Origin: a virus
Taxonomy: Duplodnaviria > Caudoviricetes
DNA: 45,756 nt
IMG/VR virus record: IMGVR_UViG_3300033076_001086
Location: 1-45,756 of that record
Reading direction: 5' to 3' (one strand)
The first letter of the stretch is position 1. The number at the start of each line of letters is the position of its first letter. A program made the translations under genes and the position numbers. This document shows positions 288 through 44,609 of this stretch, piece by piece. The notes under the pieces were generated by a model. That model had not been told where the DNA came from. It worked only from the letters and a program-made list of their open reading frames with translations, and ran no database searches.

Positions 288-312
288 CTTGGGTAATACC
301 CACGGTCATACT
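284..312 (+). promoter_or_regulatory. Sigma70-type early promoter, family A copy 1
   Basis: TTGACT-17bp-CATACT. The spacer holds TGGGT-AAT-ACCCA; heptamers at 293 and 305. Bases 283-312 are identical to 5626-5655. Confidence 0.8.
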
Positions 313-344
313 CGACCACACCGTAACACACCGGAGCTACTGAG

Positions 345-632
345 ATGAGAACCTACCACCCGATTACCGGTCGCGCTGTTGTGAGGCGGCCAGCGACCGA
401 GAACGTGCAGACCGCAACGCTGCAGATCGTCCGTGAGCGCCTGGACACCGCCGCGCAGGCGCTGGAACAGGTGCGCCGCATGGACGAAGCGGTCCTCATT
501 GAACGGGCCCGGTGGCTCAACTGGCGTGCGTGGCTTGAGTGCACCGCCGACCTGTCGCGTCCTTTCACCCCCTACCACGCGTCCAGCCGTGTGCAACGGG
601 GCCTCAAATTTTCACGGGAGTACCGTTCGTGA
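345..632 (+). CDS. Hypothetical early protein (95 aa)
   Basis: ORF directly behind a promoter with GGAG upstream; stop overlaps the next GTG start. Confidence 0.65.
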   Translation: MRTYHPITGRAVVRRPATENVQTATLQIVRERLDTAAQALEQVRRMDEAVLIERARWLNWRAWLECTADLSRPFTPYHASSRVQRGLKFSREYRS

Positions 633-1153
633 TCATCAATATCCTTTTGCGCCCCAACCTCGACGGTGCGACCGTGGCCGACGTATTTCGGGACGCTGGA
701 ATTTCCCTACGTTGGTGCACCACCTTGACCCGAACAGGTGCTAACTGCGTGTTCTATGCGGAGGTGCGGTACTCCCTTGCCCCCGTAGAGCCGTACCTTC
801 AGCGCGTGGCGGACAAGCTTGGACTTCGCGTTTTTTACCGCCAAACTGAGGAGGCCCCGACTCAGGGCCGGTGCGTAAATCCTTCCGGGTCCGAGTTTGC
901 TGTCGGAGGGAGGTACGTTGTCGAGAACATCCCTTCGAGCCTGCCGCATGACGCCGCGGTTTGCAGCAAAACGCCCCAAGTTCTCGGCCGCATCCACAAG
1001 CGTCATACCGAACCGGACGATGGCGCCACGTTCGCGTGGCTTCAAGAGATGCGGGATCGCAGCCGCCGAGCGCCGGAAACTGCCGGGACCGCGCCTATCA
1101 CCAATGCCGAACTGCGCCGGCTGTTGCGCTTGGTCATCACGGGGGCCGAATGA
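629..1153 (+). CDS. Hypothetical protein (start revised to GTG 629)
   Basis: Frame of ORF 539..1153; GTGA overlap upstream and ATGA overlap downstream. Confidence 0.6.
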   Translation: MIINILLRPNLDGATVADVFRDAGISLRWCTTLTRTGANCVFYAEVRYSLAPVEPYLQRVADKLGLRVFYRQTEEAPTQGRCVNPSGSEFAVGGRYVVENIPSSLPHDAAVCSKTPQVLGRIHKRHTEPDDGATFAWLQEMRDRSRRAPETAGTAPITNAELRRLLRLVITGAE

Positions 1154-1452
1154 TCCGCCTGTTCCTGACCATCGATCACCACTACGCGCACAAGACGATT
1201 GCCCGATGCGGGCTCAAAGATCCTTGGGTGCTGGTGCGTCTCGGAACGCCACGGTACGACACCTCCAGCACCTACCGCGTTGGGGCTCCGCTCACCGGCT
1301 ATTTTGGCTGCGTGCGCTCCGTGGCGTTCCTCCTGCAGCGCCCGGTGCTGGTCCAAGTGGGCGGCGAACGGTACGGCCATCTGGTGATGCCCTTGCGCAC
1401 CCACCCCGCCGACATGGCCAAGCTCGAAATGTGGCGACCCGACGGATGGTAG
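1150..1452 (+). CDS. Hypothetical protein (MIRLFLTIDHHY...)
   Basis: Frame of ORF 961..1452; ATGA coupling at 1150. Confidence 0.6.
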   Translation: MIRLFLTIDHHYAHKTIARCGLKDPWVLVRLGTPRYDTSSTYRVGAPLTGYFGCVRSVAFLLQRPVLVQVGGERYGHLVMPLRTHPADMAKLEMWRPDGW

Positions 1453-1500
1453 TTGACGGGTCATACCGGCGCGCGTAGTATTACCTCATCGCAACACGAA
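1453..1500 (+). promoter_or_regulatory. Sigma70-type early promoter, family B copy 1
   Basis: TTGACG-17bp-TAGTAT; 43/48 identical to 19378-19425; heptamers at 1460 and 1478. Confidence 0.8.
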
Positions 1501-1512
1501 CCGGAGCCCGAC

Positions 1513-1734
1513 ATGACCACCATCCTCAGCACCCCTCTTTACGAATTGCTGATGATTGCCCCCGCGGGTGCTGTGCGCCCTGTGCAGCAGGCAATGCGCC
1601 ACGTAGCGGCCGGCGAATGGAAAGAAGCCGCCAAGCAAATGAACGTTGCTGCCGAAGTCAGCGAAACCGAAGACGCTTGGTATCTGGCAGCGGGCAAGGC
1701 CGCCGACGAACTGCACCGCCACTACTACAAATGA
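1513..1734 (+). CDS. Hypothetical early protein (MTTILSTPLYELL...)
   Basis: GGAG RBS before ATG 1513, directly after the promoter. Confidence 0.7.
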   Translation: MTTILSTPLYELLMIAPAGAVRPVQQAMRHVAAGEWKEAAKQMNVAAEVSETEDAWYLAAGKAADELHRHYYK

Positions 1735-1784
1735 GATACCCGCAGTATTACCCCATCGCAACCAACCAACAAGGAGCCCACACC

Positions 1785-1988
1785 ATGAACCAGCTTTCCT
1801 ACCGCGACAACCCGCACCCCTGGCTGCGCACGCCCCGCACGAGCACCTCCCGCCCGGACTACGCCAGCCCTCTGACCTGCTACCGCAGCCACGCAAACCG
1901 CGCCACACGTCTCGCGAGGGTCTTGGCCTTCGTGTTGATCTGTGGCGCGCTTGGCATGCTGGCGGCCTGCGCGGGGGTCGCATCGTGA
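1785..1988 (+). CDS. Small protein with C-terminal transmembrane segment
   Basis: AAGGAG RBS before ATG 1785; hydrophobic VLAFVLICGALGMLAACAGVA. Confidence 0.65.
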   Translation: MNQLSYRDNPHPWLRTPRTSTSRPDYASPLTCYRSHANRATRLARVLAFVLICGALGMLAACAGVAS

Positions 1989-2113
1989 ACCAAGACGACG
2001 ACACGGAGCGCGACTTGGACGCCGAAATGTGGGCGTTCCTCAACAGAGTGGGGGTGTTCCTGGCGGCCCTCTTCCTGTTTGGCGTCGTTGTTCTCGTTGG
2101 GGGCATGACGTGA
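1985..2113 (+). CDS. 42-aa membrane micropeptide
   Basis: GTGA overlap; acidic N-terminus then VGVFLAALFLFGVVVLVGG. Confidence 0.55.
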   Translation: MNQDDDTERDLDAEMWAFLNRVGVFLAALFLFGVVVLVGGMT

Positions 2114-2199
2114 ACAGCTTTCTGGCCGCACTCGCCGTGTGGGTGCTCGCCTGCGTGGTGTGGGGCGGCTTCTACCTCCTGATCGTCATTTTCTCGTGA
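2110..2199 (+). CDS. 29-aa membrane micropeptide
   Basis: GTGA overlap; MNSFLAALAVWVLACVVWGGFYLLIVIFS. Confidence 0.5.
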   Translation: MNSFLAALAVWVLACVVWGGFYLLIVIFS

Positions 2200-2288
2200 C
2201 GCTCTTTCGGGCCGCACTCTACGCGGCGGGGGTCGCTTGGATGTTTTGGGAGGGGGTGGTGCCGCTGCTGCGGTGGGCGCTACAATGA
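2196..2288 (+). CDS. 30-aa hydrophobic micropeptide (not in ORF track)
   Basis: GTGA overlap; hand translation MTLFRAALYAAGVAWMFWEGVVPLLRWALQ. Confidence 0.4.
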   Translation: MTLFRAALYAAGVAWMFWEGVVPLLRWALQ

Positions 2289-2321
2289 CCGGCATCTCTA
2301 CCTACCCCCCGAGGTGCCCCC

Positions 2322-2726
2322 ATGACCATCCAGCTCAGTGACCCGGTGCGCAACGCCCGGCTCGACTCGATCGAGACCACGATCGGCGCTACCGCCAAAC
2401 TCCAGTTCCGTTCCGGCGCCCAGCCCGCCAACTGCGCGGCGGCCGACACCGGCACCCTCCTGGCGGAATTGACGCTGCCGAGTGACTGGATGAACGCAGC
2501 TTCCGGTGGCGTCAAAACGCTGCTGGGAACCTGGGCGGGGGCTGGCGTGGCAGCGGGCAACGCGGGGCACTTCCGCCTCAAGAACAACGCCGGCACGGTC
2601 TGCGGCATGCAAGGCTCGGTCACGGCAACCGGTGGCGGCGGGGACATGACGTTGGACAACATCGCCATCGCCGCAGCCCAAGCCGTCACCATCACGGGCT
2701 TCACGCTGACCGACGCCAACGCATAA
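2322..2726 (+). CDS. Putative virion fibre-associated protein (134 aa)
   Basis: GAGGTG RBS; Gly/Ala/Thr-rich beta-type sequence (RNARLD...GTLLAELTL...GGGGDMTLDN...ITGFTLT) of a kind often seen next to phage fibre genes. Confidence 0.65.
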   Translation: MTIQLSDPVRNARLDSIETTIGATAKLQFRSGAQPANCAAADTGTLLAELTLPSDWMNAASGGVKTLLGTWAGAGVAAGNAGHFRLKNNAGTVCGMQGSVTATGGGGDMTLDNIAIAAAQAVTITGFTLTDANA

Positions 2727-2736
2727 GGGGCACCCC

Positions 2737-2976
2737 ATGGACATCCAAACCAAACTCGCTTACGCCAAGCGGCACATTGACAGCATCGCCGAGCACTTTG
2801 ACGCACCCGAGGCAGAACTGAAAGCCGCCCTGGGCGAACTCGAAGCCTACGCCAAGACCAAGCTCAAAGGCAGTGCGGCCGATCGCGCCCGGTATGAGGC
2901 GGACCGCAAGGCCCAAGCCGAGGCCCTGGCCGCAGACCGTGCCCGCGTGCAGGCAGAAGCCGACACCGAAAAATAA
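2737..2976 (+). CDS. Small helical/coiled-coil protein (79 aa)
   Basis: Tightly packed in the operon; Ala/Glu/Lys-rich. Confidence 0.65.
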   Translation: MDIQTKLAYAKRHIDSIAEHFDAPEAELKAALGELEAYAKTKLKGSAADRARYEADRKAQAEALAADRARVQAEADTEK

Positions 2977-2985
2977 GGGCCCGCC

Positions 2986-5274
2986 ATGGCCCTGTCTTAT
3001 GTAGGCTCGGCCGTTGGCACGACCTCGGCCACGCTGCCGAGTTTTCTTCCGGGCGACATCGCCCTGACCTTCGCTTTCCGCGACGGGGTGGCCACGGCTC
3101 CCTCGCTGCCGGCCGGGTGGGACGATGTCATCAGCGGAGCGGCCAATACCTGCGCTCAGCGCGTAGGCACCCGCCAGCTTCAGACCGGTGACACCAGCAC
3201 CGGCACGTGGACCAACGCAACGTCGGTCATCGTCCACATCCTGCGACCCACCGGCGGCCACGCCATCGTGGGCGCGTCGTCTCAGAACGGCGGCACGGCA
3301 ACCTCCGTCACCTACCCGGCCTTGACGCTACAGGACGCCAGCGGCTCAAGCTGGGTTGTTCGCATGGCCGGGCATCGCTCGGTCAACACAAACCTGCAGA
3401 ACCCCCCGAGCGGCTACACCTTCCGCAACGGGCAAGTGACCGCAACGGATGAGCTCGCCACGTTCGACTCGGCCGCAGGGCTGTCCGCCAATCCAACCGC
3501 TGACGCCGTGGCCGTGGGTGGTACGGCGAGCGGCTGGCGCACGGTGTCGATTGAGGTGCGCTTTGAACCTGCGCGCATACCCCCTACCTACCGCAGCAGC
3601 ACCAGCAACGGGGATAGCTCCTTTACGAACAACCAGATCACCGCAGATGTGCCGGGCGGTGCTGGCGTGGCCATCGGCAGCTATGAGGAGATCAAGGTAG
3701 CCGCGGCTTGGTTGGCTGGTTCTGGTGCAGCACCCATCATCAACACGCCGGCCGGCTGGAACCTGCCCGACAACGGTACGGGGCTCTCGGTTCCGAGCGC
3801 GGGCGGGCTGGTCAACACGCGGACAACGGTGTTCTGGCGGATGTCGCCCGACACCGGGTCGCCCGCCACCCTGGCCATTTCGACCGGCGCCAATGGGGTG
3901 TTCGTGTACGAGCGCTCCGCCTACGATGGCGTAGACCCGACCAACCCAGTCCGGCAGGTCATCCAAAGCAGCGCGGGGTCTGGCAACTCCATTGTGTTCC
4001 CGAGCTTCAATGCCGTTGTGGACTCGATGCTGCAGGCCTTTGTGTCCCTGGGCGCCGCGCAGACGACCACGCCGCCGGCATCCATGACCGCCCGCCAGAA
4101 CAACGCGGCCTACGGGGTGACGGCGGCGGATGAGGTTCTGACGACAACCGGCCTCACCGGCCCGCGCACGTTCACCTTTGCGACCACTTCCGAGGCGGTG
4201 GGCGCAATCACCGAGATTCGAGGTGTGTTGGCGCCCACGGGTGTTACCGGCACGTTGAACGCCGCACTGGGCGCCCTAACCGTGGCCGGCGCTGGCACAG
4301 TGGAGGTTTCGGGCACGTTGTCGCGCACCCTGGGCGCTCTGACTTTGTCGGCCGCCGGGGCGGTTCCGGTCTCCGGTTCTTTGACGGCCACCCTGGGCGG
4401 CCTGGGACTGGCCGCTACCGGCGTGGTTGGCTCCCCCGCGATCACCGGCACGCTCAGCGCCACACTGGGCGCTTTGACCCTGGCCAGCGCCGGCACGGCG
4501 CAAGTGGCCGGGGCTTTGACCCAAACCCTCGGGGCCCTCGGGCTTGCCGCTACGGGGGCCGTGGGCGTCTCCGGGAGCCTCGCGGCTACCTTGGGGCCTC
4601 TGACCCTCGTTGCGGCGGCCACAGCCCGCGTGACGGGCTCCCTGACGGCAACGCTGGGCCCGCTGACCCTCACGGCGGCCGGCACGCTGCCGGTCATCGG
4701 CACGCTCAACGCCACCCTGGGCAGTTTGGGCCTCGTGGCATCCGGAGTCGTGGGGTCGTCCCCGGTCATCGGCACGCTCAACGCCACCCTGGGGGCCCTC
4801 ACTGCCTCCGGCGCTGGCACAGTGCGGGTAGCCGGCGCCCTGGCGGCCACGCTCGGTCCGCTCGGGGTGTCGACGGCGGGAACGGTTCGGGTGTCCGGCA
4901 CGCTGGCGCGCACCTTGGGGCCGCTGGGGCTGGCCGCTACGGGAGCCGTGGCGGTACGCGGGGTGCTTTCCGCTACCCTCGGCCCCCTCACCCTCGTTGC
5001 GGCGGCCACAGCCCGCGTGACGGGCTCCCTGACGGCAACGTTGGGCCCGCTGACCCTGGACGCCACGGGCACCAACCAGCCCGGAATCGTCGGTAGCCTG
5101 GACGTGCTCTTGGGGGCGCTCACGTTGGTGGCCACGGGGGTAACATCGCAGACCAAGCCCTCCAAGGCCCGCACGATCCGCGTGGCCGCCGAGGACCGAA
5201 CGACACGCGTAGCCGCGCAGATCCGCCGGGTGCGCGTGGCCCGTGAGACCCGAACTGTCAAGGTGACACTATGA
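2986..5274 (+). CDS. Long fibre-like virion protein with about 21-aa repeats (762 aa)
   Basis: Two N-terminal beta-rich domains each containing PAGW, then about a dozen repeats of G(T/S)LxATLG(A/P)L(T/G)LxAxGxVxV, then a basic C-terminal tail (RTIRVAAEDRTTRV...). Confidence 0.7.
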   Translation: MALSYVGSAVGTTSATLPSFLPGDIALTFAFRDGVATAPSLPAGWDDVISGAANTCAQRVGTRQLQTGDTSTGTWTNATSVIVHILRPTGGHAIVGASSQNGGTATSVTYPALTLQDASGSSWVVRMAGHRSVNTNLQNPPSGYTFRNGQVTATDELATFDSAAGLSANPTADAVAVGGTASGWRTVSIEVRFEPARIPPTYRSSTSNGDSSFTNNQITADVPGGAGVAIGSYEEIKVAAAWLAGSGAAPIINTPAGWNLPDNGTGLSVPSAGGLVNTRTTVFWRMSPDTGSPATLAISTGANGVFVYERSAYDGVDPTNPVRQVIQSSAGSGNSIVFPSFNAVVDSMLQAFVSLGAAQTTTPPASMTARQNNAAYGVTAADEVLTTTGLTGPRTFTFATTSEAVGAITEIRGVLAPTGVTGTLNAALGALTVAGAGTVEVSGTLSRTLGALTLSAAGAVPVSGSLTATLGGLGLAATGVVGSPAITGTLSATLGALTLASAGTAQVAGALTQTLGALGLAATGAVGVSGSLAATLGPLTLVAAATARVTGSLTATLGPLTLTAAGTLPVIGTLNATLGSLGLVASGVVGSSPVIGTLNATLGALTASGAGTVRVAGALAATLGPLGVSTAGTVRVSGTLARTLGPLGLAATGAVAVRGVLSATLGPLTLVAAATARVTGSLTATLGPLTLDATGTNQPGIVGSLDVLLGALTLVATGVTSQTKPSKARTIRVAAEDRTTRVAAQIRRVRVARETRTVKVTL
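4603..5057 (+). repeat. 68-bp direct repeat inside the fibre gene (4603-4670 and 4990-5057, one mismatch)
   Basis: Direct comparison: ACCCTCGTTGCGGCGGCCACAGCCCGCGTGACGGGCTCCCTGACGGCAACG(C/T)TGGGCCCGCTGACCCT. A second repeat of about 32 bp lies near 4690 and 4762. Confidence 0.9.
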
Positions 5275-5612
5275 CCCCCTGCTCGCCCGCTTCCGACTCC
5301 CTGCCCACCACTCGACGCACCACCACGGATCGGCTGGATTACCCTTTTGACTGGACGGACTGGCTGGCTTCCTCCGGGATGACGGCGGCCAACATCACGG
5401 CCTTCGACTTTGCGGTCGTGGGAGACCCGCTGCTCACCGTGGCCGCGCAAACTCGGGACGGGGCCTTGGCGGTACCGTGGCTGGAGGGCGGCACGGATGG
5501 GGTCACTTCGGAGCTGCGCAGCACAATCAGCGGCATGAACGGCCCCCAGGCGTTCAACGTCACCCGCTCTCGCTTGATCGAGGTCCGGTTGTCCGTCGGG
5601 GCTCGCTCCTGA
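5271..5612 (+). CDS. Putative fibre adaptor protein
   Basis: ATGA-coupled to the fibre gene; LDYPFDWTDWL and WLEGGTDG motifs resemble a small phage fibre-adaptor family (recalled, not searched). Confidence 0.6.
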   Translation: MTPCSPASDSLPTTRRTTTDRLDYPFDWTDWLASSGMTAANITAFDFAVVGDPLLTVAAQTRDGALAVPWLEGGTDGVTSELRSTISGMNGPQAFNVTRSRLIEVRLSVGARS

Positions 5613-5626
5613 CCGACGAACGGCGG

Positions 5627-5655
5627 TTGACTTGGGTAATACCCACGGTCATACT
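5627..5655 (+). promoter_or_regulatory. Sigma70-type early promoter, family A copy 2
   Basis: TTGACT-17bp-CATACT, identical to 284-312. Confidence 0.8.
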
Positions 5656-5685
5656 TGGCGCCATCAACCACATGGAGCTTAGGAC

Positions 5686-5907
5686 ATGGCTGTTTCACTC
5701 AAAGGTACTCCCTGGGAACTACCCGCCCTGCGCGTCCCAAAACGTTGGCCCGCGGCACCCAAACCCCACCTTTGCCGCCAACCCTTTGGCGCGTTTCTGC
5801 CCCCCGTGTGGGTCTGCACTTCCCCCAACGGGGAGAGTGACCTATTTGTCGGGGTTGCGTTTACCGCGGGGGAGGCGTTCCAGCTGTGGAAGGGGCAGCA
5901 GCCATGA
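5686..5907 (+). CDS. Hypothetical early protein (73 aa)
   Basis: Follows the promoter; GGAG/AGGA RBS; ATGA-coupled to the next gene. Confidence 0.6.
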   Translation: MAVSLKGTPWELPALRVPKRWPAAPKPHLCRQPFGAFLPPVWVCTSPNGESDLFVGVAFTAGEAFQLWKGQQP

Positions 5908-6125
5908 CCACCGGAAGCGCCCTCGACTCCACGACAGTGCGCCTTGTCCGCAAAGGCCTTCAAGTCTCCAAGATCGAGCGAGGCAAGCCCACCAAGTACG
6001 GCACGGTTTCCAAGGCCAACGGCGAACGCTGTTGGGTGCTGTGGCTCGGCGCTCGTGGGTCGTCCTACGAATGGTGCAAGAACTTAACCGTGCTGGAGAA
6101 ACACGAATGCCCTCCTACCCCATAG
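5904..6125 (+). CDS. Hypothetical protein (MTTGSALDSTT...)
   Basis: ATGA overlap at 5904; frame of ORF 5886..6125. Confidence 0.6.
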   Translation: MTTGSALDSTTVRLVRKGLQVSKIERGKPTKYGTVSKANGERCWVLWLGARGSSYEWCKNLTVLEKHECPPTP

Positions 6126-6316
6126 CTGCGCACGACGCGGGCGGTCTCATTCTCCGAGGCTGGCCGCGCTCGGGGTTCTGGTACTTCGGCATCCGAGAGG
6201 ACGGCCAGACCGGAGCGCTTGCGCAGTGGGACGGGTGGAAATTTGCGAACAGCGAGAGTGACGACGTGGACATGACGATCTACCACCACTTGCAAGAACA
6301 GCCGCCGCGCGGCTAG
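6107..6316 (+). CDS. Hypothetical protein (MPSYPIAAHDAGG...)
   Basis: GGAGA RBS before ATG 6107; 3' part of ORF 5477..6316. Confidence 0.55.
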   Translation: MPSYPIAAHDAGGLILRGWPRSGFWYFGIREDGQTGALAQWDGWKFANSESDDVDMTIYHHLQEQPPRG

Positions 6317-6325
6317 AATGGTCCC

Positions 6326-6411
6326 ACCTTGGGGTCCAACGGCCCAGGGCTTTCGTGGTTGTCTCCTTGTTCATTCGCCCCCGCGCTGACCCCCAGCTCG
6401 GGGGCATTTTT
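6326..6411 (+). ncRNA. Candidate small RNA with anti-Shine-Dalgarno tract
   Basis: Own promoter TTGCAA(6290)-18bp-TAGAAT(6314); 5' hairpin 6327-6349; unpaired GTGGTTGTCTCCTTGTT; terminator 6377-6411; lies between convergent genes. Confidence 0.6.
6377..6411 (+). terminator. Intrinsic terminator
   Basis: GCCCCCGCGCTG-ACCCC-CAGCTCGGGGGC followed by ATTTTT. Confidence 0.75.
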
Positions 6412-9439: not shown

Positions 9440-9901
9440 TCAAGTATAGCGCCAGGGGCGCAGCTTCTGTGAGTAAGGCACGTACAGGGGGTGTTTGGGC
9501 GAACCGTTGGCGTTCGTTCCCAGGCACCATAGCTCCGCCCCGTGCCGTGTGAGAATTGATGCTGTTCTGGCGCCCTGTTCTCGGGGGGCATTGTTGCCCC
9601 AGCCAATCACGATCAGCGGGTAAAGGGCGGCCATACCCAAGTAGACGTCATTCTCGGGCCCGTAGGGGTCCGCCATGGCTCGCCAGTCTTTCGGGTCTGT
9701 CGCTCGCCCCGCTCCGATGTTGAAAAGGTGATACGCGGGGTACCCCCAGTCCCGGGCGAAGGCTTTTATCTTCGTGGACGTGGGGTCGTCTACCTCAGCG
9801 TCAGCCGTACTCGGGTTGAGCAGCACCACCGCGCACGCAGGGCCCGCGCCCCGCGTGAGAACGTAGCGATAACGACCGCAGGGGGAGAGGATCGCGTTCA
9901 T
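9440..9901 (-). CDS. DUF1643 family protein
   Basis: SPCGRYRYVLTR, LLNPSTAD...DDPT, GWG, PKHPLY motifs; ATGA-coupled start 9901. Confidence 0.85.
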   Translation of the reverse strand: MNAILSPCGRYRYVLTRGAGPACAVVLLNPSTADAEVDDPTSTKIKAFARDWGYPAYHLFNIGAGRATDPKDWRAMADPYGPENDVYLGMAALYPLIVIGWGNNAPREQGARTASILTRHGAELWCLGTNANGSPKHPLYVPYSQKLRPWRYT

Positions 9902-13199: not shown

Positions 13200-13210
13200 A
13201 ATGGTATTAC

Positions 13211-13239
13211 TTGACAGTGTCGTTAAGTCTGATGATACT
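13211..13239 (+). promoter_or_regulatory. Sigma70-type promoter at the divergence point of the replication genes
   Basis: TTGACA-17bp-GATACT; heptamer GTATTAC abuts the -35 at 13204-13210. Confidence 0.7.
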
Positions 13240-14201: not shown

Positions 14202-15388
14202 GCGCAGCGCCGCCCCTTCCCTCTGTCCTAACCCCGGTGGCCGGGGCGGCGCATGCGATCCTTGCGCCTTCGTCGGCCCACCGTTGGGTTTTCTGCCCCG
14301 GCTCGGTGCGCTTGGAGGCCCTGTTTCCGGAGACCGAGGAACGACCTGAAGCTGCGGAGGGCACCGCCGCGCATTGGGTTATCGAGTGCATGCTGCTGGA
14401 ACACCGCACGCCCGCCGTGGATGAGGTGGCCCCCAACGGGGTCCACGTTGATGCAACCATGATCGAAGCGGCCCAGGTTGTCTACGATGATGTGGTGGCC
14501 ACGCTCGGGGCGCAGTGGCGGCACATGATTGCGGTCGAGCAGCGAGTAGCTATTCCCCGCGTGCACCCGCAGAACTGGGGCACGCCCGATATCCGGGCGT
14601 GGCAGCAGCTCGGGGACGGCCGGTGGAAGCTGCACGTGTGGGACTTCAAGTATGGCTTTAAGATCGTTGAGGCCTACGAAAACTGGCAGTGCATCGACTA
14701 TGCGTCCGGGCTGCTGAGTGAAGCAAAGCTCGATGACGGATGGAACGATCAAAACACGGTCGTTTCTATCTGCGTCATTCAGCCCAGGGCGCCCCACCGC
14801 GAGGGCTCCGTGCGGCGCTGGGTGTTCCGGGCAAGCGACATCCGTGGCCACATCAACCGGCTTCAGATGTCGGCTATCGATGCGCTCGGCGAGAACCCGA
14901 AATGCTACCCGGAGCCCAGTGCTTGCGAGGACTGCAAAGGCCGTACCGTGTGCGAAGCGAACCAACGTGCCTCGCTGCGGGCCGCCTCGCTGGGGTACTC
15001 CGCGCAGCCGTTGGAGATGACGCCGCACGCGGTGGGTGTTGAGCTGCGCATGCTGTCAAGAGCAAAGAAAGTGCTTGACGCCCGCGTGGCCGCCCTGGAG
15101 GAGCAAGCCGTGGCCTATTTCCGCCGAGGTCAAGCCGTGTCGTGGTACGCGATGGAATCCACGCAAGGCCGCCTCGCCTGGACGAAGCCGACCGAGGAGG
15201 TGTTGGGCCTGGGTCGCATGCTCGGCAAGAACTTTGCAAAGCCTACGGAGCCCATCACGCCCACCCAGGCTAAGGCGCTCGCGCCTCAATTCGCCAGCTT
15301 GATTGACGCCGTTGCCGCGAGGCCGACCGGTTCGGTCAAGCTGGTGCCGGACGACGGGTCGAAAGCCCGCCGAGTATTTTCGTCTTGA
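14198..15388 (+). CDS. DUF2800 / Cas4-like PD-(D/E)xK exonuclease
   Basis: HAILAPSSAHRWVFCPGS, AAEGTAAH, VEQRV, WGTPD, DFKYG, IQPR, C..C.....C. Confidence 0.88.
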   Translation: MSAAPPLPSVLTPVAGAAHAILAPSSAHRWVFCPGSVRLEALFPETEERPEAAEGTAAHWVIECMLLEHRTPAVDEVAPNGVHVDATMIEAAQVVYDDVVATLGAQWRHMIAVEQRVAIPRVHPQNWGTPDIRAWQQLGDGRWKLHVWDFKYGFKIVEAYENWQCIDYASGLLSEAKLDDGWNDQNTVVSICVIQPRAPHREGSVRRWVFRASDIRGHINRLQMSAIDALGENPKCYPEPSACEDCKGRTVCEANQRASLRAASLGYSAQPLEMTPHAVGVELRMLSRAKKVLDARVAALEEQAVAYFRRGQAVSWYAMESTQGRLAWTKPTEEVLGLGRMLGKNFAKPTEPITPTQAKALAPQFASLIDAVAARPTGSVKLVPDDGSKARRVFSS

Positions 15389-15413
15389 CGGCCCCGTTAA
15401 ATCGGGTCATACT
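15385..15413 (+). promoter_or_regulatory. Sigma70-type promoter for the SSB/polymerase genes
   Basis: TTGACG-17bp-CATACT; heptamer at 15406 overlaps the -10. Confidence 0.72.
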
Positions 15414-16558: not shown

Positions 16559-16566
16559 ACCACACG

Positions 16567-16592
16567 GGGCGGCCACATGGTCGCCCTTCTTT
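16567..16592 (+). terminator. Intrinsic terminator after SSB gene
   Basis: GGGCGGCC-ACAT-GGTCGCCC-TTCTTT. Confidence 0.6.
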
Positions 16593-16609
16593 CCTGAAAG
16601 GTATTACCC

Positions 16610-17005
16610 ATGACCCCCGAACAACGCGAACGAAAAAAGCAGGCGGACAGAGAACGCCGCGCTCGCCTGAAGGCGCAAGGCCTGGACGCCAAGGCGATCC
16701 GCGCTGGTGTGAAAGCCGCCATGAAAAAGCCTCGACCCGCAGCCGCCGCCCCCACGGTGAAGGTGAGCCGCAAAAAAGAGCTGGCCGACATCAATGCGGA
16801 CCTTGCAAAAGTCTTTCCGGGTAAGCCGATCAAGGTGGACCGCAATGGCCAAGTCGTGCGCAACCAGCACGCCAGCCGTAGTGCGGCTCCCGAAGGTCGC
16901 ATGCAAGTGATCTCCTTCAAGGGCCACACACACCACGCGGAAAAGCTGCGTCGGCTCGGGGGCGGCGAGTTTTTGCGCGGCGCCATTGAAGACGCCAAGG
17001 AATGA
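16610..17005 (+). CDS. Basic protein, possibly DNA-binding (131 aa)
   Basis: Very Lys/Arg-rich; C-terminal EKLRRLGGGEFLRGAIE resembles ribbon-helix-helix-like regulators; heptamer lies between RBS and ATG. Confidence 0.65.
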   Translation: MTPEQRERKKQADRERRARLKAQGLDAKAIRAGVKAAMKKPRPAAAAPTVKVSRKKELADINADLAKVFPGKPIKVDRNGQVVRNQHASRSAAPEGRMQVISFKGHTHHAEKLRRLGGGEFLRGAIEDAKE

Positions 17006-19377: not shown

Positions 19378-19425
19378 TTGACGGGTATGACCGGCGCGCG
19401 TAGTATTACCCTATCGCAACACGAA
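19378..19425 (+). promoter_or_regulatory. Sigma70-type early promoter, family B copy 2
   Basis: TTGACG-17bp-TAGTAT; near-identical to 1453-1500; heptamers at 19385 and 19403. Confidence 0.8.
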
Positions 19426-19716: not shown

Positions 19717-20082
19717 ATGACCCGTCTTTACCACAACCTCGTGGCCAGCATTTCCCTGTTGGTCGCTGGCTTTCTCGCACTGGGAGCCACGGCGGTCCAC
19801 CTCAAAGCCGAGCGTGACGCTCGACCTCCCACTGTGGTCATCCCTGACGCTTCCCAGGCACGGGCCGTCTGCCGCGAGTTCATCGAGCGCAAGGCCCCCA
19901 CGGTCGTGCCGGTGTTCTACCCGAACTGGCGGGTCAAGGCGCCGGCCCACGGTTCCGGCCGGTGGCAGGTCATCGCCGAGTTCCAGGCCGTCCACGGCAG
20001 CGGCGTGACCACACACCATCGCATGCTGTGCGTCGTTGACCACACCCCCGGCACCCGCTGGAAACTGGAGAAACTGGTATGA
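19717..20082 (+). CDS. N-terminally anchored or exported protein
   Basis: AAGGAG RBS; hydrophobic LVASISLLVAGFLALGATAV. Confidence 0.7.
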   Translation: MTRLYHNLVASISLLVAGFLALGATAVHLKAERDARPPTVVIPDASQARAVCREFIERKAPTVVPVFYPNWRVKAPAHGSGRWQVIAEFQAVHGSGVTTHHRMLCVVDHTPGTRWKLEKLV

Positions 20083-20339
20083 CCAAAAGCCCCACAGGCC
20101 GTTACCTGCTGGAATACCGACCTCCGTTCCATGAACTCCCCCGTTTTGGGGGCCGATTGCGCGACCACACGGTTCAGCTCCCGCACCACGTGCATGAGCT
20201 GGAATACCTGCACGAACGGGAGATTGAGTGCTGGCGGATGTTTGGCCTGCACGTGGAGCAAGTCCAAGACGAAACGTGGGTGTGCGTCGTTGACCACACC
20301 CACGGCACCGGCTGGAAACTGGAGAAACTGGTATGACCA
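20027..20339 (+). repeat. 59-bp direct repeat (20027-20085, 20281-20339; 57/59 identical)
   Basis: Direct comparison; both copies encode CVVDHT.GT.WKLEKLV-stop and end in GTATGACCA. Confidence 0.92.
20079..20336 (+). CDS. Hypothetical protein sharing its C-terminus with the upstream gene
   Basis: GGAG RBS, ATGA coupling. Confidence 0.6.
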   Translation: MTKSPTGRYLLEYRPPFHELPRFGGRLRDHTVQLPHHVHELEYLHEREIECWRMFGLHVEQVQDETWVCVVDHTHGTGWKLEKLV

Positions 20340-20527
20340 CGCCGCCCATAAAGCTGTGCCCGGAGTGTTACTCCGTAAACCTTTTGGGGGTGCGGTACTG
20401 TCGGGACTGCCGGCGCCCTTTCTACTTCGAGCGCCAAAAGTCCCCCGCGGCCGCCAAAATCGCCCCGCCACGCCGCGATCGTCAGGGGGCCGAGGGGGTA
20501 GTAGCCAAAACGCCCAAAGACGCTTGA
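20333..20527 (+). CDS. Small Zn-ribbon protein
   Basis: CPEC...CRDC; ATGA coupling. Confidence 0.6.
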   Translation: MTTPPIKLCPECYSVNLLGVRYCRDCRRPFYFERQKSPAAAKIAPPRRDRQGAEGVVAKTPKDA

Positions 20528-37111: not shown

Positions 37112-38629
37112 TCAGGCGGCCGAAACTCGCTTGAGCATGCCGGCGACCAGACCGCCGGGCACGATCGCGGCGTCCATCGCCACGGTGCGCGTGTCGGCAG
37201 CGGGGGCGGCCTTGGGGGCGGCCTTCAGGAAGGCGTCCAGGGCGTACACCGCAGCAGCGGCGGGCACGTCGCCCAGGCCGATCGCCTCGTGCTTGCACCC
37301 GTAGGCGGCGACCTCGGCCGAGGTCATCTCGGCGTGATCGAAGGTGCCGATAACGGGGGTGAGGCGGGCCACCAGTGCATCACGGACCGCAATGTCCTTG
37401 AGCACCTCACGGGTGCTGTTGGCCTTGAACTCGGCCAACTGCGTGGACACGGTCTTGAGCGCAGCATCCATGGCCACGGCTTTGTCCTTCATGTCCTCGA
37501 CTTCCGCCGTCAGGGCCTCGGCGGCGGGCTTGGGCTCCTCGCCGGCCGGTTTGGCCGTGGCCGCCATGGCGGCGTTGAGGGCGGCCACCTGGGGGGCCAG
37601 CTCTTTCAGCATCTTGACGGCATCGGCCAGGGTCATACCTGCCCCGGCGTCGCCTTCGTCTGCTGCGGGTTTCTTTTCCGGATCAGCCATGATGAGTTCC
37701 TTTGCGTCGAATGAAAATGTGAATTGGTCCATGACAGCCACGTCGGCGCCCATGCGCCCTTGTTTGACCAAGGCCAAATGGTTGCCCCTGATCTGACGTT
37801 GCACGGCGTCATACGCTTGGCCCTCAAAGACCCCCGGCGTAAAGTCATACCGGCAACGATAGCCCGCTGAGAGTTCGCGCTTTCCGGCGTCGATAAGTTC
37901 CGCGAGACTGTCTGAAAACGTTTTGATATTACCGTACAAAACGCCATCTTCAAAAAACACCTGTTCCCCGATGACCCCGTGCACCCCTTTTGCCTCGGCG
38001 GGCAACGCGGTGTCCATGACCTTCTGGAAGGCCGGGCCGATCATCGTGTGGTTGTCCACCCAGGGGAGCAGCTTGAAGGATTCGATGCACTCGGGAGAGG
38101 CCAGCTCCTCGGGCGGGCGCAGCACAAGGTACGTGCGCTGGGCGTCCTCCCCGGTCTTACCGAGCTGGGCGCCACTGTACGGAAAAACGCCAACCTTCGA
38201 GATGGGATTTTTCTTGACCTCGAACCAGCCGTTGCCGTCGTACTGGCGAGCGCTGAGGGTGTCGGTAGCGGCGGACATGGGGAGCAACAGAGGGGCTAGG
38301 CCTGGGTGTAGAGGCGTGGGCAGATCAGAGAGCGGCGCCCACACGAAGCCGCGATGCTCGGAATTTAGCACGGGATCGAACGGAGCGGGTAGTCTGACCC
38401 GGAACGTCGCAAAGTGCCCATCGTCGTGCATGGGGAGCAGCGGAAGCTGGGAGGGATCGAAGCCGACCTCCTCTTGGCACTCTCGAATGGCGGCCTCGCT
38501 CGGCGTCTCCCCCGGTTCGATCTTCCCGCCCGGCAGGCCCCACGTGCCCGGTTCGTCGCAGTCGTCGCCGCGCAACAGCAGCAAGACTTGGCCCGCGGCC
38601 AGGAACAGAATTCCGGCTGCGTAGGTCAT
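37112..38629 (-). CDS. Nudix hydrolase fused to DUF2213 prohead protease/scaffold (start revised to 38629)
   Basis: Nudix box [23 protein letters not shown]; then [29 protein letters not shown]; helical scaffold-like tail. Confidence 0.88.
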
Positions 38630-38787
38630 GCTGCGATCCCGGTAATACTTTGGGCCAGGAACACGATGGCCGCCACGAACCACAGTGCGCCCTGCAGGTC
38701 TCGCTGTCCGTCGTGCTTGCTGGCGATCGCCGCCATGCCGAAAGAAGCGCACGTAAGGGCGATGATGGCGCTGGCAACAGGGCTCAT
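38626..38787 (-). CDS. 53-aa protein with two hydrophobic segments (not in ORF track)
   Basis: Hand translation [53 protein letters not shown]; ATGA overlaps at both ends. Confidence 0.65.
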
Positions 38788-39680
38788 TCTGCGGTCTCCG
38801 TTTCGGTGGGGGTTTCTTCGTCCTCAAAGACGAACACGGGGGACATTGTGCATCGGCAGTTGGGCGCTTGCCCAGGGATTCCGCGCTCGCCCGTGCGTTC
38901 GTCAATGACCGGCAGGTCGTCAAACGAGTAGACGTTGCCGTCCATGGCGATGTGATCCTCCCGGGGGTGGGCGCCTCCGCCGCTGTGGTGCCACTTGAAT
39001 TTTTTGATCCCGATGGCTTGCATGCGGCCCTTGTTGATCGAGTTGTAGGCCTTGCGTGTCTGATCGAGCGCGATGTTCCGCGCCCGGCGGTGGGTCTGCC
39101 CCTCGTACTGCTGCAGCGCGGGGATCAGATCCTGTAGGCCGTTCCCGGTGGTAATACTGCGCATGACTGCGCCTTGCACCTTGTCGAGATACTCGCTGGC
39201 AATCGACTTGATAAGCCCCACGTTCTCGGTGACGCTCGCTTTGTAGACGTTCTCCAGGGCGGGCGTCATGACGTTCGTTTTCAGGCTCATGCCGCCACTG
39301 AGTTTCTCCAGGCTACTGTGCGTGGCCGAGGCAGACGCGCGGTCAGCCTGCCGTACCATGCGATCGGCCAGGATCTTCGCCCGCTTGTTGAACAGGTCTT
39401 GGAATCGAGCCTGCAGCGAGTTGACCAGAATCCTCGCCTCGCTGGCCACGCTGCGGGCGTCGGTGGCGAAATGGGCGCTGGCGGCCTCGCCCTCGAATAG
39501 CCGCTTGATTTCGCGCGTGACCTGCGCGGTCATCTGCGCCGTGAGTGACCCCAAGGCATTGACGTACCGCACGCCGACTCCGGCCGGGTTGTTGAGCGTG
39601 GTCCCCTCAAACGTTGGGGGCTTCACGCGCTGAGACGCCCACAGGTCTCGCTTCTTGGTGAGCCGGACGGTGGGTTTCAC
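38784..39680 (-). CDS. Minor head morphogenesis protein (MuF / SPP1 gp7 family)
   Basis: [14 protein letters not shown]...[14 protein letters not shown]. Confidence 0.9.
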
Positions 39681-41209
39681 ACCAAGTCCTCATCCAGCGG
39701 CTCGGCAACCTCTATGCCGTCATACCCGCCCGTCTTGTCCTTGGACCACTTGATCCGCACATCCGATCCGTCGATAGCGCCAGTGCCCACGAGGATGGCG
39801 TCTGTCTCCGCCTTGGTCTTGTTGACCGCGGCTTGCTCCTCGGCCGTGAGGCTGTCGAGCGGGTGGAACACCACATCAACCGCGAACGGCCGCACGGTGC
39901 CTGCCAAGCGAGGCAGCACCTCGGAGCGGATGACGCACATGTGGTGCCGCTCCATGAGGGGCAAGAGATCCTCGGTCTGGATGGCTTCGAGCTCCTCGTG
40001 GTAGTTCGCCTCCTCGTACTCGCCCGTCGAGTTGAAGCCCTTGGGCGTGGTGCCGAGGAGCTTGGTCGCCGGGATGTTGCACGCCGCGGCCACGAGCTGA
40101 TATTGGGTCATGATCGTGGCGTCCAAGTCGGCCAGCCCCGTGTCGTGCTGCTCGATCTTGTCTGCGTCTTTGTCCGCGACCTGCACCCCGTAGTTATCCC
40201 GCAGGCCCGCCCAGGTCATCAGCTTTTCGGAGAACTTGGCTAGGTTGGACAGCGCCTTGGCTGAATCCGTGTAGAAGATAGTGGACCGCTTCGTCAGCAG
40301 CAACTGCGGCGACTCATTGGCGCAGCGCTCGGCCGCATACACCCGCTCAAAGATGAGCTGTGGCACCGACATTCCGCCGTAGAGGTAGGAGGGCTTGAGG
40401 ATGTCGGGAACCTCCGGGCCTTTCATGATGACAAGGTGCGAGCGATGCACCCGCTGGCCGTTGACAATCCAGTAGGTCGGCTCATAGAACTCCACGGACG
40501 TCGGGTCCATAGCGCCAGACGTGGACAGCTCGGGCGCCAGCCAATAGGGGTCGATCTGCACGATGCCTCGATAGCTGTTGGGCCGAATGCCGTCCGGGTT
40601 GAAGGGCTTGACGTAATACTCCGGGTCGGTGGACTCGACCTTGAACATAGCCACACGGATGCCGAACACGCGGCCCATCTTCACAAACTCAATCATGTTC
40701 TTGCGCAGGCGAAACTTTTTGTCCGCCCGCTCGATCATGGCCAGAACCTCCACGGGGTTGACGCCTTCGATTTCGGGGACGTTGACCTCGTACCCCTTGC
40801 GGATGGCATCTCGGGCGGGCACGAGGCAGGCTTTGTTGACCAGCCACTGCTGCGCGATGAGGGCGCACATCTGGTACCCGATGAACCCTTGCGACCCGTA
40901 CCAACCGAGCTGCACTGTGGGCACGCCAGACTCGCCAAATTGGTAGAGGGCCTTGATTCCCCCTGGCGCGTCCGCGCTGTCCATGGCCGCCGCCACCTGA
41001 GTGACCGGGTTGTAGACCCGCGTGCGCGCCAGCGCCTGGGTGAGCCGCATCTGAATTTTCGATAGGAGGGTTTCCCGAGAGACGCCGATTGCGGGTTGCG
41101 GCCCATCGTCCTCGCGTTCGGTGGTGAACTCGGGTTCCGGTGCCTCGCGGGGTTCGGGCGCTGGCTCCGATCGCGTGATGAATTTCCAAAGCCGTCCGAA
41201 CATGGTCAT
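39677..41209 (-). CDS. Portal protein (DUF1073 family)
   Basis: Directly after TerL; [28 protein letters not shown]. Confidence 0.88.
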
Positions 41210-42834
41210 ACCTCTTGATCAAAAAAGCCTCGGCGTACAGGCTCGCCGGGCGCGTGGAGAATCATAACGGCGTCGGCCAAGTTCGGCGACTTCATGCCGT
41301 CGGGGGCCTTGTTGATGAGAAGCTTTCCAGTACCGTCCTCTTTGTAGGTCGGCTGGCTCAGCTCGACAATCAAGGCCTGCAGGTCCGGCAGGCGACTTGA
41401 GATAGAGATGATTTCATCCGGGTCGAACGGGTGGCCCTGCACCACGGCACGGTAGGTGCGCAGGAACTTGAGACGCAACGTCCACCAACCTTGAGCCTTC
41501 AGGTTCTTGAAATAGTCTTCGTTGGTCCGTTCCTCTTTGTCCCGTTCGTCGTTGGGGTCCACCTGGGGGATCTTGCCCTCGGGGTCCACAACCTTGGCCG
41601 ACCCTCGGAACGGGATGACCGTGATCTCCCGTTGGTCGCGCTCGGTGCGGGCCTCGTTGATGACCCGGGCATCCCCTCGCACCCCTGCGCCCAGGCCGTC
41701 GGCGTCATACCGAAATTCCGTGTAGCCCTCGGAGTCGCACACCTCGAAGGCCCGCTCGGTGGTGCCGAAAATGTCATCCCCCTTGCCGCTCCACGAGTCG
41801 AGGAACTCCAGCAGAATCCCGCGGCCCCCTGCAAACGCGTTCATGTCCTTGCCTTCGTCCGCAACGTCGAGCGCCCCGCGGCGCTTGCCGGTCGGGTTGA
41901 TGCCGAGCTTCACGTGGGCGTCTACCGCCGCTTGAATCCACGCGGACGGGATGACCACGCCCTCTACGCTGGCGTTTTCGTCAAGGTCATACTCTTGGGC
42001 GATGACGCGAACGTCCTTAGTGGCCTTCAGGTTCTCGTACCACTCCTCGGTCTTTCGGGGGTCGTCGCGCCAGTGGATCGTAAAGACCCGGCCCGCTTCC
42101 CAGGTCCGGCGCTTGATGGAAAACGGCGTGTCGCTGCCCTTGACCGATGACATGTCGATCCGGCAGTTGGTGGTGGCGCTCAACGATTCGTCCGCCAGCA
42201 AGGGCCGCTCCAAGTGCGCCGACTCATCAACGAAGTAGATGGCGCAGCGGTCGCCGCGGCCAATGTTGTCGCCCGCCTCCCCCGAGATGACGCTATCCGT
42301 CCCGGGAAACGTGATCCGCATGTATGCGCCGTGCTTGGCTTTGTTCCACCCGTTTTTGAACTCGGGCGGGAGGTTGTCCAAGAACACTCGGGCCTTGTAG
42401 AACAGGGATTTTGGACTGCCCAGCTGATCCACGTACTGCTCTTTGCGCGACCCGAAGCCGATGGCCATCCCAGGGTAGAACAGGCACAGCGTGCAACTGA
42501 GGGCGATGGCGCACCAAGAGGCCCCGGTGTCGCGAGACTTGGGGACGATGCCGTCACTGCTGTCCTTCCACTTCGCAACGATCCATTGCATGAGCTCGAC
42601 TTGCTTTGGGAACGGAATGAACGGGATTGTGGCTGGCAACCCCCGCTCGATGTTCCGAGGGTCGTAGGTCATACCCCAATCCTCGATGAACTGCCAGGGA
42701 TGCAAGCGGTAGTACGCCTTGAGCATTGAGAGCTTCTGGCCAGACTGGTCGTTTCGCAACTGCTGCAGCATGTGCAGCCGCCGCTTGAACACCATTGCGT
42801 AGTCTGGGTTGACGAAATCGAAGCCTTCGATCAT
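41206..42834 (-). CDS. Terminase large subunit (start revised to 42834)
   Basis: [40 protein letters not shown]; GGAGG RBS and ATGA overlap. Confidence 0.92.
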
Positions 42835-43604
42835 GCCTCCCCCTTCGTCCACTGCTGGTACATGAGGGCGAGTTTGTTGGGGTCATCCGGCAGCACCTCG
42901 GCCACATCCACGACGTCGCCGCCTGCGCGCCCGTAGCCGCCCTGTGGGGGCGTTGGGCCGTCCTTGGAGGTCATGCGCAGATAGTCGCTGATGTTTTTCC
43001 ACATGGCCGCTTGATCGTGCATGAGAACCTGTATGCCGTCCTTCGTCACCTTGACGCCTGCGAACAAGGCCCGCTCCGGCCCGGTGAGTGTCGAGCTGTC
43101 GGCGATGAACACGTCTACCACGCCTTCGCCCAGGCAGCGGGGGCAATCCGGGCTCGGGTCGGCATTGAACGTGAACCCCATGCCGCCCGCCCCGTCTGGA
43201 AACTCAGGGCGCTTTTCGTCGCGCTTGGTCGGCCGCCATTCGAGCACGTCTTTGACGCGCTGGGCGTACTCCCACTCGGTCCACTGGTATTTGTGGTCCT
43301 TGCCCCAGCAGTGCCGGCAGTTGAGGCGGCGAACGCGGATGAGCTTGGAGGGGTCGGCGGTGGCCACATCCAGCCACTGTTTCAGCACGAGGGCCGGGCT
43401 GATGTTGGCCAGCTGAGCGACGGCGGCCCGGCGCTCCTCAATGGCCGCCAGGACAGCAGGATCTGCGAGGAGCTTGGCAACGGCGTTGCTCGCGGTGCCC
43501 ACGCTGAATCCAGCGTTCAAGGCGGCCTCGCGAGGGCTGGCCACATTGGTCTTGGCCATCTCCTCAATGAATCGGTGGGTGCGTGGGAAGCGTAGGAGGT
43601 TCAT
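42831..43604 (-). CDS. Terminase small subunit with Zn-finger insert
   Basis: AALNAGFS...A...L HTH-like start; CRHCWG...CPRC.GEG; LFAGVK..KDGI; upstream of TerL. Confidence 0.85.
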   Translation of the reverse strand: MNLLRFPRTHRFIEEMAKTNVASPREAALNAGFSVGTASNAVAKLLADPAVLAAIEERRAAVAQLANISPALVLKQWLDVATADPSKLIRVRRLNCRHCWGKDHKYQWTEWEYAQRVKDVLEWRPTKRDEKRPEFPDGAGGMGFTFNADPSPDCPRCLGEGVVDVFIADSSTLTGPERALFAGVKVTKDGIQVLMHDQAAMWKNISDYLRMTSKDGPTPPQGGYGRAGGDVVDVAEVLPDDPNKLALMYQQWTKGEA

Positions 43605-43609
43605 GGTGC

Positions 43610-43644
43610 GCGATTATCGACCGGTTGCGTGCGATTATCGACCG
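43610..43644 (-). repeat. Tandem 14-bp direct repeat upstream of terS
   Basis: GCGATTATCGACCG at 43610-43623 and 43631-43644 (21-bp period). Confidence 0.85.
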
Positions 43645-43679
43645 CTTCTTAATGACCACACGGTCAGTAAAACGCCGTC

Positions 43680-43875
43680 GCTCTCAGTATGCATACTTTG
43701 TGTAGTTTCGTGTAGTTTTCGAGTAACCCTAAGTCGTTGATTTTCTTATAGTTTCTACCCTTTTTACCCTTTACTCTAACTTCTACTCTACTCCATATAA
43801 GAAATACTATACTATGTATGCTGTATGTATCGTATAGTAGAGGCATCATACAGCATACATATCATATAATTTCCT
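43680..43875. other. AT-rich non-coding region, candidate replication origin or packaging site
   Basis: Only long AT-rich tract in the window; palindrome AGTATGCATACT (43686-43697); IHF consensus match (43730-43742); perfect 15-bp inverted repeat 43813-43827 / 43847-43861. Confidence 0.65.
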
Positions 43876-43927
43876 AGGCCGACATCAGGAATCCCGTTTG
43901 GTGTACGATTTTCGTGTAAAACACTCT

Positions 43928-44353
43928 ATGCATACAGTTATTTCCCGAACCGACGCCGCCGCCGCTGGTGCTCGTTTCTTCTACACCGGGCGGCCCTGCA
44001 CGCGAGGCCATGACTGCCTGCGCTACACCAGCACCGGCAACTGCGTGGAGTGCCACCGGGCCCGCGGGCAGGTTCTGACCAGCAACGCCAAGCAAGGCCG
44101 GATCGCCCGGATGCGCGAGCACTTTTCGTATGAGCTGCACCCTGACGACCACGCTGCCGCCCTGGCGTTCTGTCAGGCGCTGGACATTCAGCGGGGAGTC
44201 ATACCCAAGTCCGCACCCGCAAGGCCTGCACCGCGCACGATCACGCCCGAGGAGATCGAGGCCCGGCGCCAGTGGGTCATCAACGGCGGCATGTACCCCC
44301 AAGCCCGAGGCCCCGCGGCGGCCAGGGACGACTTCCCCCCGCTGTCAAATTGA
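43928..44353 (+). CDS. Zn-binding protein (YTGRPC..GH...RY....CVEC), no HNH domain visible
   Basis: The motif is commonly N-terminal to phage HNH nucleases; here it stands alone. Confidence 0.7.
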   Translation: MHTVISRTDAAAAGARFFYTGRPCTRGHDCLRYTSTGNCVECHRARGQVLTSNAKQGRIARMREHFSYELHPDDHAAALAFCQALDIQRGVIPKSAPARPAPRTITPEEIEARRQWVINGGMYPQARGPAAARDDFPPLSN

Positions 44354-44364
44354 GGTACACTGGC

Positions 44365-44558
44365 GGCTCCCAATGGCACTGAGTTAGCGGAGCCCACGAA
44401 AGGGCCAGCCGCAAGGCACAACCTCCGGTGTTACCCCGGAGCGTGGCGCCCGGTTTCTCTAGGTCGGGGAATTTCAATGCAGCCGAAGCCACAAGCTGCG
44501 TGACGATGGCAAACGCTTTGCCCCTAAGCCCCCGGACTTGCAACTCCCGGGGGCTTTT
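44365..44558 (+). ncRNA. Candidate multi-hairpin structured RNA
   Basis: Six consecutive hairpins plus a terminator in an intergenic gap; TACACT -10-like box at 44356. Confidence 0.45.
44526..44558 (+). terminator. Intrinsic terminator
   Basis: AAGCCCCCGG-11nt-CCGGGGGCTT-TT. Confidence 0.75.
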
Positions 44559-44579
44559 GCATTTCTGGACGGGCGGCAC

Positions 44580-44609
44580 TTGACGGTTCGGTCAAGTGTG
44601 GGTAATACT
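44580..44609 (+). promoter_or_regulatory. Sigma70-type early promoter
   Basis: TTGACG-18bp-AATACT; heptamer at 44602 overlaps the -10; upstream GACGGGCGGCAC resembles the upstream element of the other early promoters. Confidence 0.65.

Follow-up and report, generated by a model that had tools for sequence, protein, structure and literature searches.

Virus record IMGVR_UViG_3300033076_001086, all 45,756 nucleotides of which were analyzed here (hereinafter, the window), is a 45.8-kb myophage genome of 63.4% GC that encompasses replication, lysis, tail and head modules and that, given the open reading frame (ORF) spanning the ends of the record, is likely to be circular and complete. The heptamer GT(A/C)ATAC is scattered over this genome in 60 copies, and we consider it probable, at roughly 0.7, that this is the site of the phage's own protein with a predicted ribbon-helix-helix (RHH) domain (gene at 16610-17005); this protein would act as a repressor of the early promoters and of its own gene, and its operator would have spread to about 60 places.

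The heptamer and the selection on it

An exact count gives 60 sites and none beyond the 60 coordinates that the initial annotation had read by eye, all of which are exact, as is its tally of 37 GTMATAC and 23 GTATKAC on the plus strand (14 GTAATAC, 23 GTCATAC, 13 GTATTAC and 10 GTATGAC). The expected total is 3.7 under an order-2 Markov model, 6.7 under an order-3 model and 5.2 from base composition, the last value being in line with the composition estimate of about 5 given earlier. When both strands are taken together, there are 27 GTAATAC against 0.6 expected and 33 GTCATAC against 3.1 expected (order-2 model). The specificity of the site is sharp, because GTGATAC and GTTATAC, which complete the set of middle letters, are present in a single copy apiece and none of the remaining one-mismatch neighbours exceeds 13 copies. 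The site, which had been described as palindromic arms around an asymmetric core, is better read as a dyad GTA-W-TAC in which C is tolerated at position 3. Outside the heptamer a purine is preferred, and the 5' flank is never T (0 of 60 sites). No regular spacing was detected along the window, where the sites are placed at random with gaps of up to 3.9 kb, nor do they tend to extend into hairpins, 39 of the 60 being devoid of any extra paired base.

Selection acts on the DNA, as had been proposed, rather than on the protein: the window contains 36 wholly intragenic sites compared with 3.7 ± 1.8 (maximum 11) in 1000 synonymous-codon shuffles, and all six of the Val-Ile spellings cited in support of that proposal are in frame. 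In G001, a sister phage with approximately 77% nucleotide identity to the window, 18 of the 22 sites at which the encoded amino acids are the same are preserved (background 0.32, p 2e-6), and 56 of the 67 in-site codons are retained where 32.5 would be expected. Sites with unchanged amino acids are similarly kept in the relatives G007 (7/8) and G017 (6/6), whereas relatives without enrichment keep none by the same synonymous-site test (0/5 in G002 and 0/4 in G006). The more distant members share hardly any site positions with the window (0/18 for G015 and 2/32 for G016), and the density of sites in them is still high. The enrichment and the synonymous conservation thus support the earlier view of the heptamer as a functional recognition site, its binding by a protein being predicted.

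The predicted reader among relatives

Two genes of the window are central to the comparison of relatives:

16610..17005, plus strand: likely reader, 131 residues, located between an SSB-like gene and the gene for DNA polymerase A
9440..9901, minus strand: DUF1643 gene, a rival or a partner of the long RHH protein, which it accompanies in all six records

In the initial counts, the heptamer was enriched in G001, G007, G008, G009 and G010 and not enriched in G002, G003, G006, G012-G014 or in any of 14 cultured relatives, and the corresponding locus of G006 and G002 was found to hold a short form of the same RHH domain. All six records with the long, N-terminally extended RHH protein are enriched, with observed/expected ratios between 4.6 and 16.2; the eight records with the short form (a set in which G002 and G019 are near-identical and G024 is represented by part of its record) show ratios from 0.5 to 4.5, and the 16 whole relatives and two fragments without the reader gene do not exceed 2.3. 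Three of the long-form records were retrieved by RHH profiles alone, before any site was counted, and contain 33 sites against 7.2 expected (G015), 54 against 5.5 (G016) and 50 against 3.7 (G017), even though the head and tail proteins of G015 are only 24-37% identical to those of the window. The fragments G008-G011 are enriched as well, with the RHH locus lying outside them. Where short forms are found, the site is still seen against the -10 element of TTGAC promoters, in 3 of 3 cases in G006 (all GTAATAC) and 4 of 6 in G002, with a single promoter-type site each in G020, G021 and G022, the last two of which are otherwise not homologous to the window over the DNA compared.

The relatives suggested at the outset do not share the enrichment (one site in Bcep781 and seven in OP2, with a control of 4), and neither phage yielded an RHH match in a profile search run without a positive control; the enrichment does occur in uncultured relatives. 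The reader family comprises about 71 clusters by profile search, short and long forms combined. A scan of GTDB with profile A1 detected no relative of the long RHH protein, a tblastn search with the short form from G002 matched no cultured phage, and a metagenome scan returned a single match, L241, which contains the N-terminal helix only, no RHH domain and no sites. Of 50 loci selected by a promoter pattern, strong enrichment was confined to G017 and G008, and three AT-rich loci were weakly enriched; of 120 loci selected by a two-site pattern (8 of 64 parts scanned), five exceeded the threshold, all non-relatives by the RHH profile.

The base flanking the heptamer seems to follow the residues of the RHH strand, a relationship that is suggestive in the six related records. 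Genomes in which the strand reads Q/R-V-x-S/T-F/W-K favour a G flank, with G:C ratios of 3.4-6.1 compared with a background of 0.9 (four records, p from 2e-7 to 2e-10), whereas the two records with V-V-x-S-F-R show no flank preference. G007 is nearer to the window than G015 and G016 are, yet its flank differs, and the pattern cuts across the polymerase tree.

The predicted reader consists of a basic N-terminal helix (residues 3-22), a variable linker rich in K, A and P, and a C-terminal predicted RHH domain (approximately 95-131) with the strand V100-I-S-F-K104 and a strand-helix-LGG-helix pattern; residues 1-93 contain 25 K+R against 9 D+E. When modeled as a dimer, residues 92-131 score 0.78, the best control scoring 0.00 and the mark being passed by 20 of 30 solved pairs and by one of 23 single chains, and at least 97% of contacts are common to the model runs, with a predicted local distance difference test (pLDDT) score of at least 85. 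In this model of an intertwined homodimer, residues 100-104 pair across the two copies in an antiparallel two-stranded sheet, with I101 and F103 facing the helices; V100, S102 and K104 point outwards from the sheet and are predicted to read the GTA-W-TAC dyad. An AlphaFold2 monomer model of 41 residues (pLDDT 89) contains an extended region and helices at 17-25 and 29-38, the full-length model being poor (pLDDT 63). Structural comparison of the 41-residue model produced 45 matches with Z between 2.0 and 3.6, nearly all of them RHH proteins (Arc, AmrZ, NikR, PutA52, omega, ParG and CdbA); a Foldseek search of the same model against the PDB gave no match, and the RHH_1 clusters of the Atlas were reached only at 0.86. 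Membership in the RHH class is therefore a prediction, given that no curated sequence family matches the window protein. P0016, P0025, P0026, P0034, P0036 and other members of the family appear to have the RHH-like domain in two tandem copies. By eye, a terminator-like hairpin lies between the SSB and RHH genes of the window (around 16565-16595), and in G007 the loop of the corresponding hairpin holds a GTCATAC site.

Several variants of the site were noticed in relatives. GTCAGAC is enriched in G008 (locus L011; 12 against 1.9) and G007 (10 against 3.7), which suggests that a symmetrical variant of the dyad is tolerated in these phages. A second motif, GTAAAC, accompanies GTMATAC in G011 (L004; 29 against 2.9) and G009 (L006; 19 against 3.9), fragments that do not cover the reader gene.

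Placement of the sites and competing explanations

Promoters were sought as TTGAC followed, after 16-18 bases, by a -10-like hexamer, with a ribosome site and a start codon downstream. The window contains eight such matches, seven of which have a site or a pair of sites, located in the spacer, over the -10 or beside the -35; the eighth, devoid of sites, is found on the opposite strand within the primase gene. The site-bearing promoters and the other classes of sites are as follows:

284..312, plus strand: promoter TTGACT-17-CATACT with two sites, 293 in the spacer and 305 over the -10
1453..1484, plus strand: promoter TTGACG-17-TAGTAT with two sites, 1460 and 1478
5627..5655, plus strand: promoter TTGACT-17-CATACT with two sites, 5636 and 5648
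13204..13239, plus strand: promoter TTGACA-17-GATACT, with a site that adjoins the -35 on its upstream side and also lies at the start of the divergent helicase gene
15385..15413, plus strand: promoter TTGACG-17-CATACT, upstream of the SSB, RHH and polymerase genes, with site 15406 over the -10
19378..19409, plus strand: promoter TTGACG-17-TAGTAT with two sites, 19385 and 19403
44580..44609, plus strand: promoter TTGACG-18-AATACT, with site 44602 over the -10
16601..16607: site in the ribosome-binding region of the RHH gene (AAAG-GTATTAC-CC-ATG), found in the same place in G001 and G017
6717, 11471, 20077, 20331, 26418, 33379 and 41205: seven sites centred on ATGA stop/start overlaps
10257, 22831, 27068 and 31261: sites a few bases 5' of start codons
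1002..44204: 36 wholly intragenic sites, in genes of the replication, head, tail and lysis regions

Altogether, 24 of the 60 sites fall within -45 to +10 of a start, a zone that makes up 7.9% of the genome. Promoters likewise bear sites in G001 (7 of 8), G007 (2 of 2), G008 (2 of 2) and G017 (3 of 4), compared with none of 24 promoter matches in four relatives without the reader gene, and the start of the RHH gene carries a site in G002 also. On the coding strand, the intragenic sites are oriented as 24 GTATKAC and 12 GTMATAC. The ATGA overlaps by themselves supply four of the seven letters of the heptamer. Two small adjacent genes end near-identically (20055-20085 and 20311-20340), each end holding a ribosome site, a heptamer and the ATGA overlap with the next gene.

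A number of observations weigh against an autogenous RHH repressor with a widely dispersed operator. The window protein has no sequence-family match in Pfam, PHROG or the PDB; Pfam RHH profiles match none of the 33 family members, and a CopG-like PHROG matches one of the 33, weakly (E 0.0057). The best structural match, 7e4j (Z 3.6, root-mean-square deviation 1.9, 36 residues aligned), has a Z that is low for a model of 41 residues, and the passing score of the dimer model may reflect likeness to solved RHH dimers. The promoters are consensus matches only, with no late promoters found by this rule, and in G015 and G016 the single match in each carries no site. The letters shared with the -10 element and with ATGA junctions favour the site in these places for other reasons, and a pure roadblock is hard to reconcile with the many sites in head and tail genes, which need strong late expression. 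Among the short-form records, G018, G023 and G024 show no promoter-type site match, the fragment G021 reaches an observed/expected ratio of 4.5 on five sites, and G002 has the same promoter site with a different strand (P-R-T-I-R). The DUF1643 gene is absent from the short-form relatives, in contrast to its presence in 6 of 6 long-form records. Finally, the long-form genomes form a single clade in the helicase tree (support 0.93), whereas the polymerase and exonuclease trees split them in two (all midpoint-rooted, with no clade test), so that there were possibly only one or two independent origins; and the binding, the repression as negative feedback and the order from short to long form are steps that we infer.

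The alternative that fares best keeps the same reader and, tentatively, casts it as mainly architectural: the sites would serve as anchors every 0.4-0.8 kb or so, from which the arms wrap or bridge the DNA as a phage-specific, self-marking nucleoid protein, repression being secondary. This possibility, which we regard as well short of even odds, is compatible with the intragenic location of 36 of the 60 sites, with their random spacing and occurrence in both orientations, with the turnover of positions at a high density in G015 and G016, and with the fact that the genome-wide spread accompanies the basic arm. There is a precedent in CdbA of Myxococcus xanthus, an RHH nucleoid protein with 569 peaks, many of them intragenic, and small effects on transcription (PMC7156744). 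However, the sites of the window concentrate at promoters and starts, the gaps reach several kilobases, and the specificity is sharp, unlike that of CdbA, which is moderate, is subject to c-di-GMP control and concerns a cell chromosome rather than a phage (PMC7156744).

It is unlikely that DUF1643 or some other phage protein reads or modifies the site, with the RHH protein as a passenger. Of the other window genes, DUF1643 alone occurs in each of the three near-complete relatives with the long form and in none of the three near-complete short-form ones, and its motifs may resemble those of uracil glycosylases. Nevertheless, five unrelated phages that carry DUF1643 have between 0 and 6 sites in 42-64 kb, short-form relatives that lack it still keep the site at promoters, and the G007 copy is 75% identical to that of the window while the flank preference differs.

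Unlikely, too, is a reader supplied by a shared host, such as a transcription factor, a nucleoid protein or a methyltransferase. Other members of the family are enriched in words containing GATC or CCWGG, but enrichment was predicted from the phage gene alone for the new long-form records (3 of 3), the identity of the flank goes with the phage protein, and a site sits on the RHH gene's own start. More specifically, GATC words are over-represented in the distant relatives W06 and W08, and CCWGG words in W11 and G012, an excess that presumably resembles host methylation sites. The window also avoids palindromic hexamers (CGTACG 0 against 43, CTCGAG 0 against 27, GGATCC 2 against 26 and GTCGAC 4 against 32) as well as words containing CCAGG, hinting at host restriction systems. 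In the 19 kb of G014 (L029), 22 copies of CCGGAGCC were counted, compared with an expectation of 0.8.

It appears very unlikely that the heptamer serves for primase recognition or marks programmed single-strand nicks. An NrS-1-like primase is encoded in the window and GTCATAC is skewed between plus and minus strands there (23/10) and in G001 (27/12), but the bias is absent in G007, G008 and G017, the primase is more similar in the non-enriched G006 and G002 (64-65% identity) than in the enriched G015 and G016 (54-56%), and the positioning at promoters would be left unexplained. Still less credible is a target of the phage adenine methyltransferase, since the ORF with the NPPF motif, though present in the window, is missing in all five of the other enriched records with the long form, of which three are near-complete. 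Thus, among the four candidate readers named initially, co-occurrence singles out the basic protein at 16610-17005 as likely; the methyltransferase is rejected by its absence from the enriched G001, G007/G008, G015, G016 and G017, and the primase and the TetR-like protein because they are 58-65% identical in relatives without enrichment. The methyltransferase-like ORF itself (45510-45756 joined to 1-287, across the origin) is lineage-specific, with one weak match among the relatives.

Precedents, a possible mechanism and its significance

The closest functional analogy to the proposed RHH repressor is found in Cluster A mycobacteriophages (L5, Bxb1), in which a phage repressor binds 20-30 oriented sites in its own genome, a few of them operators in early promoters and most of them stoperators (PMC6550527). 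The stoperators are asymmetric 13-bp sites oriented with transcription that function in lysogenic immunity, as opposed to the roughly 60 copies of a 7-bp pseudo-palindrome in both orientations described here; furthermore, the reader in the window is a predicted RHH protein, and no integrase or partition family was detected among the 67 window proteins scanned, unlike in Cluster A. The network works like a stoperator/operator system and is not a member of the Cluster A family.

With respect to recognition, the pertinent case is aCcr1 of Sulfolobales, which has viral homologues: this archaeal RHH protein binds A(T/G)G(A)TA(G)A(T/G)TACN, as determined by electrophoretic mobility shift assay and chromatin immunoprecipitation, represses promoters and depends on R2, K7 and R27 (PMC9976878). 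This box contains GTAWTAC, hence an RHH protein can read such a sequence. The resemblance extends to the small dimer, the one or two boxes per promoter and the repression by occlusion, whereas aCcr1 acts on host cell division genes of archaea and a spread through virus coding DNA is not described in the portion of the paper used here (PMC9976878). The likeness concerns the published box and the predicted fold. Repressors of the Arc, omega, ParG and AmrZ type use tandem arrays or few operators; they share the predicted fold, the dimer and the autoregulatory site with the window protein, and omega reads heptads (as the title of PDB entry 2bnw indicates), similar to the heptamer here. A phage RHH protein that acts on host promoters is Gp53 of PhiPA1019 (PMC13650114). 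Among open-licence PubMed Central and bioRxiv papers, none was found on this motif or this reader family.

Under the repressor hypothesis, the RHH dimer would bind the GTA-W-TAC dyad and occlude the -10 region of early sigma70-type promoters. The protein would accumulate from the replication operon and then limit its own synthesis through the site in its own ribosome-binding region; negative feedback is also suggested by the site in the promoter at 15385, which likely feeds the RHH gene. Because the short forms keep the promoter circuit, it appears older than the genome-wide spread, and a short form with few operators might have come first, to be followed by a long form with many, the basic arm of which would add affinity, allow single heptamers to be occupied and lead to selection of sites across the genome. 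The function of the sites in genes and at starts is the least certain part of the scheme, stoperator-like damping of read-through, combined with a role as genome-wide anchors for the basic arms, being most likely. The intragenic sites could be roadblocks, anchors of a DNA coat or a sink through which repression depends on the number of genome copies; a structural or titrating role is favoured by the turnover of positions at constant density and by the sites in late genes. A more far-reaching and rather speculative possibility is that what began as a promoter repressor now provides a lytic phage with its own sequence-anchored chromatin, with docking points every few hundred bases from which the arms coat or bridge the DNA. 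If true, such chromatin would label the DNA of the phage as self, be it for protection, for replication or for packaging, and the sites would titrate the repressor as genome copy number rises.

Sequence analysis by itself has thus matched a phage protein family that had no name to a precisely defined DNA site. Temperate mycobacteriophages are known to have repressor sites throughout their genomes; here such sites occur, with a different predicted fold, in a phage that shows no sign of lysogeny genes, and the approximately 60 sites extend into coding DNA at the cost of rare codons. With a domain of 40 residues and a site of 7 bp, the prediction is cheap to test, and the natural variants of the strand, with their differing flank preferences, could offer a recognition code for RHH proteins on a small scale. 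The start and the end of an evolutionary step appear to be in view, a short repressor with few operators and an extended one with about 60 sites.

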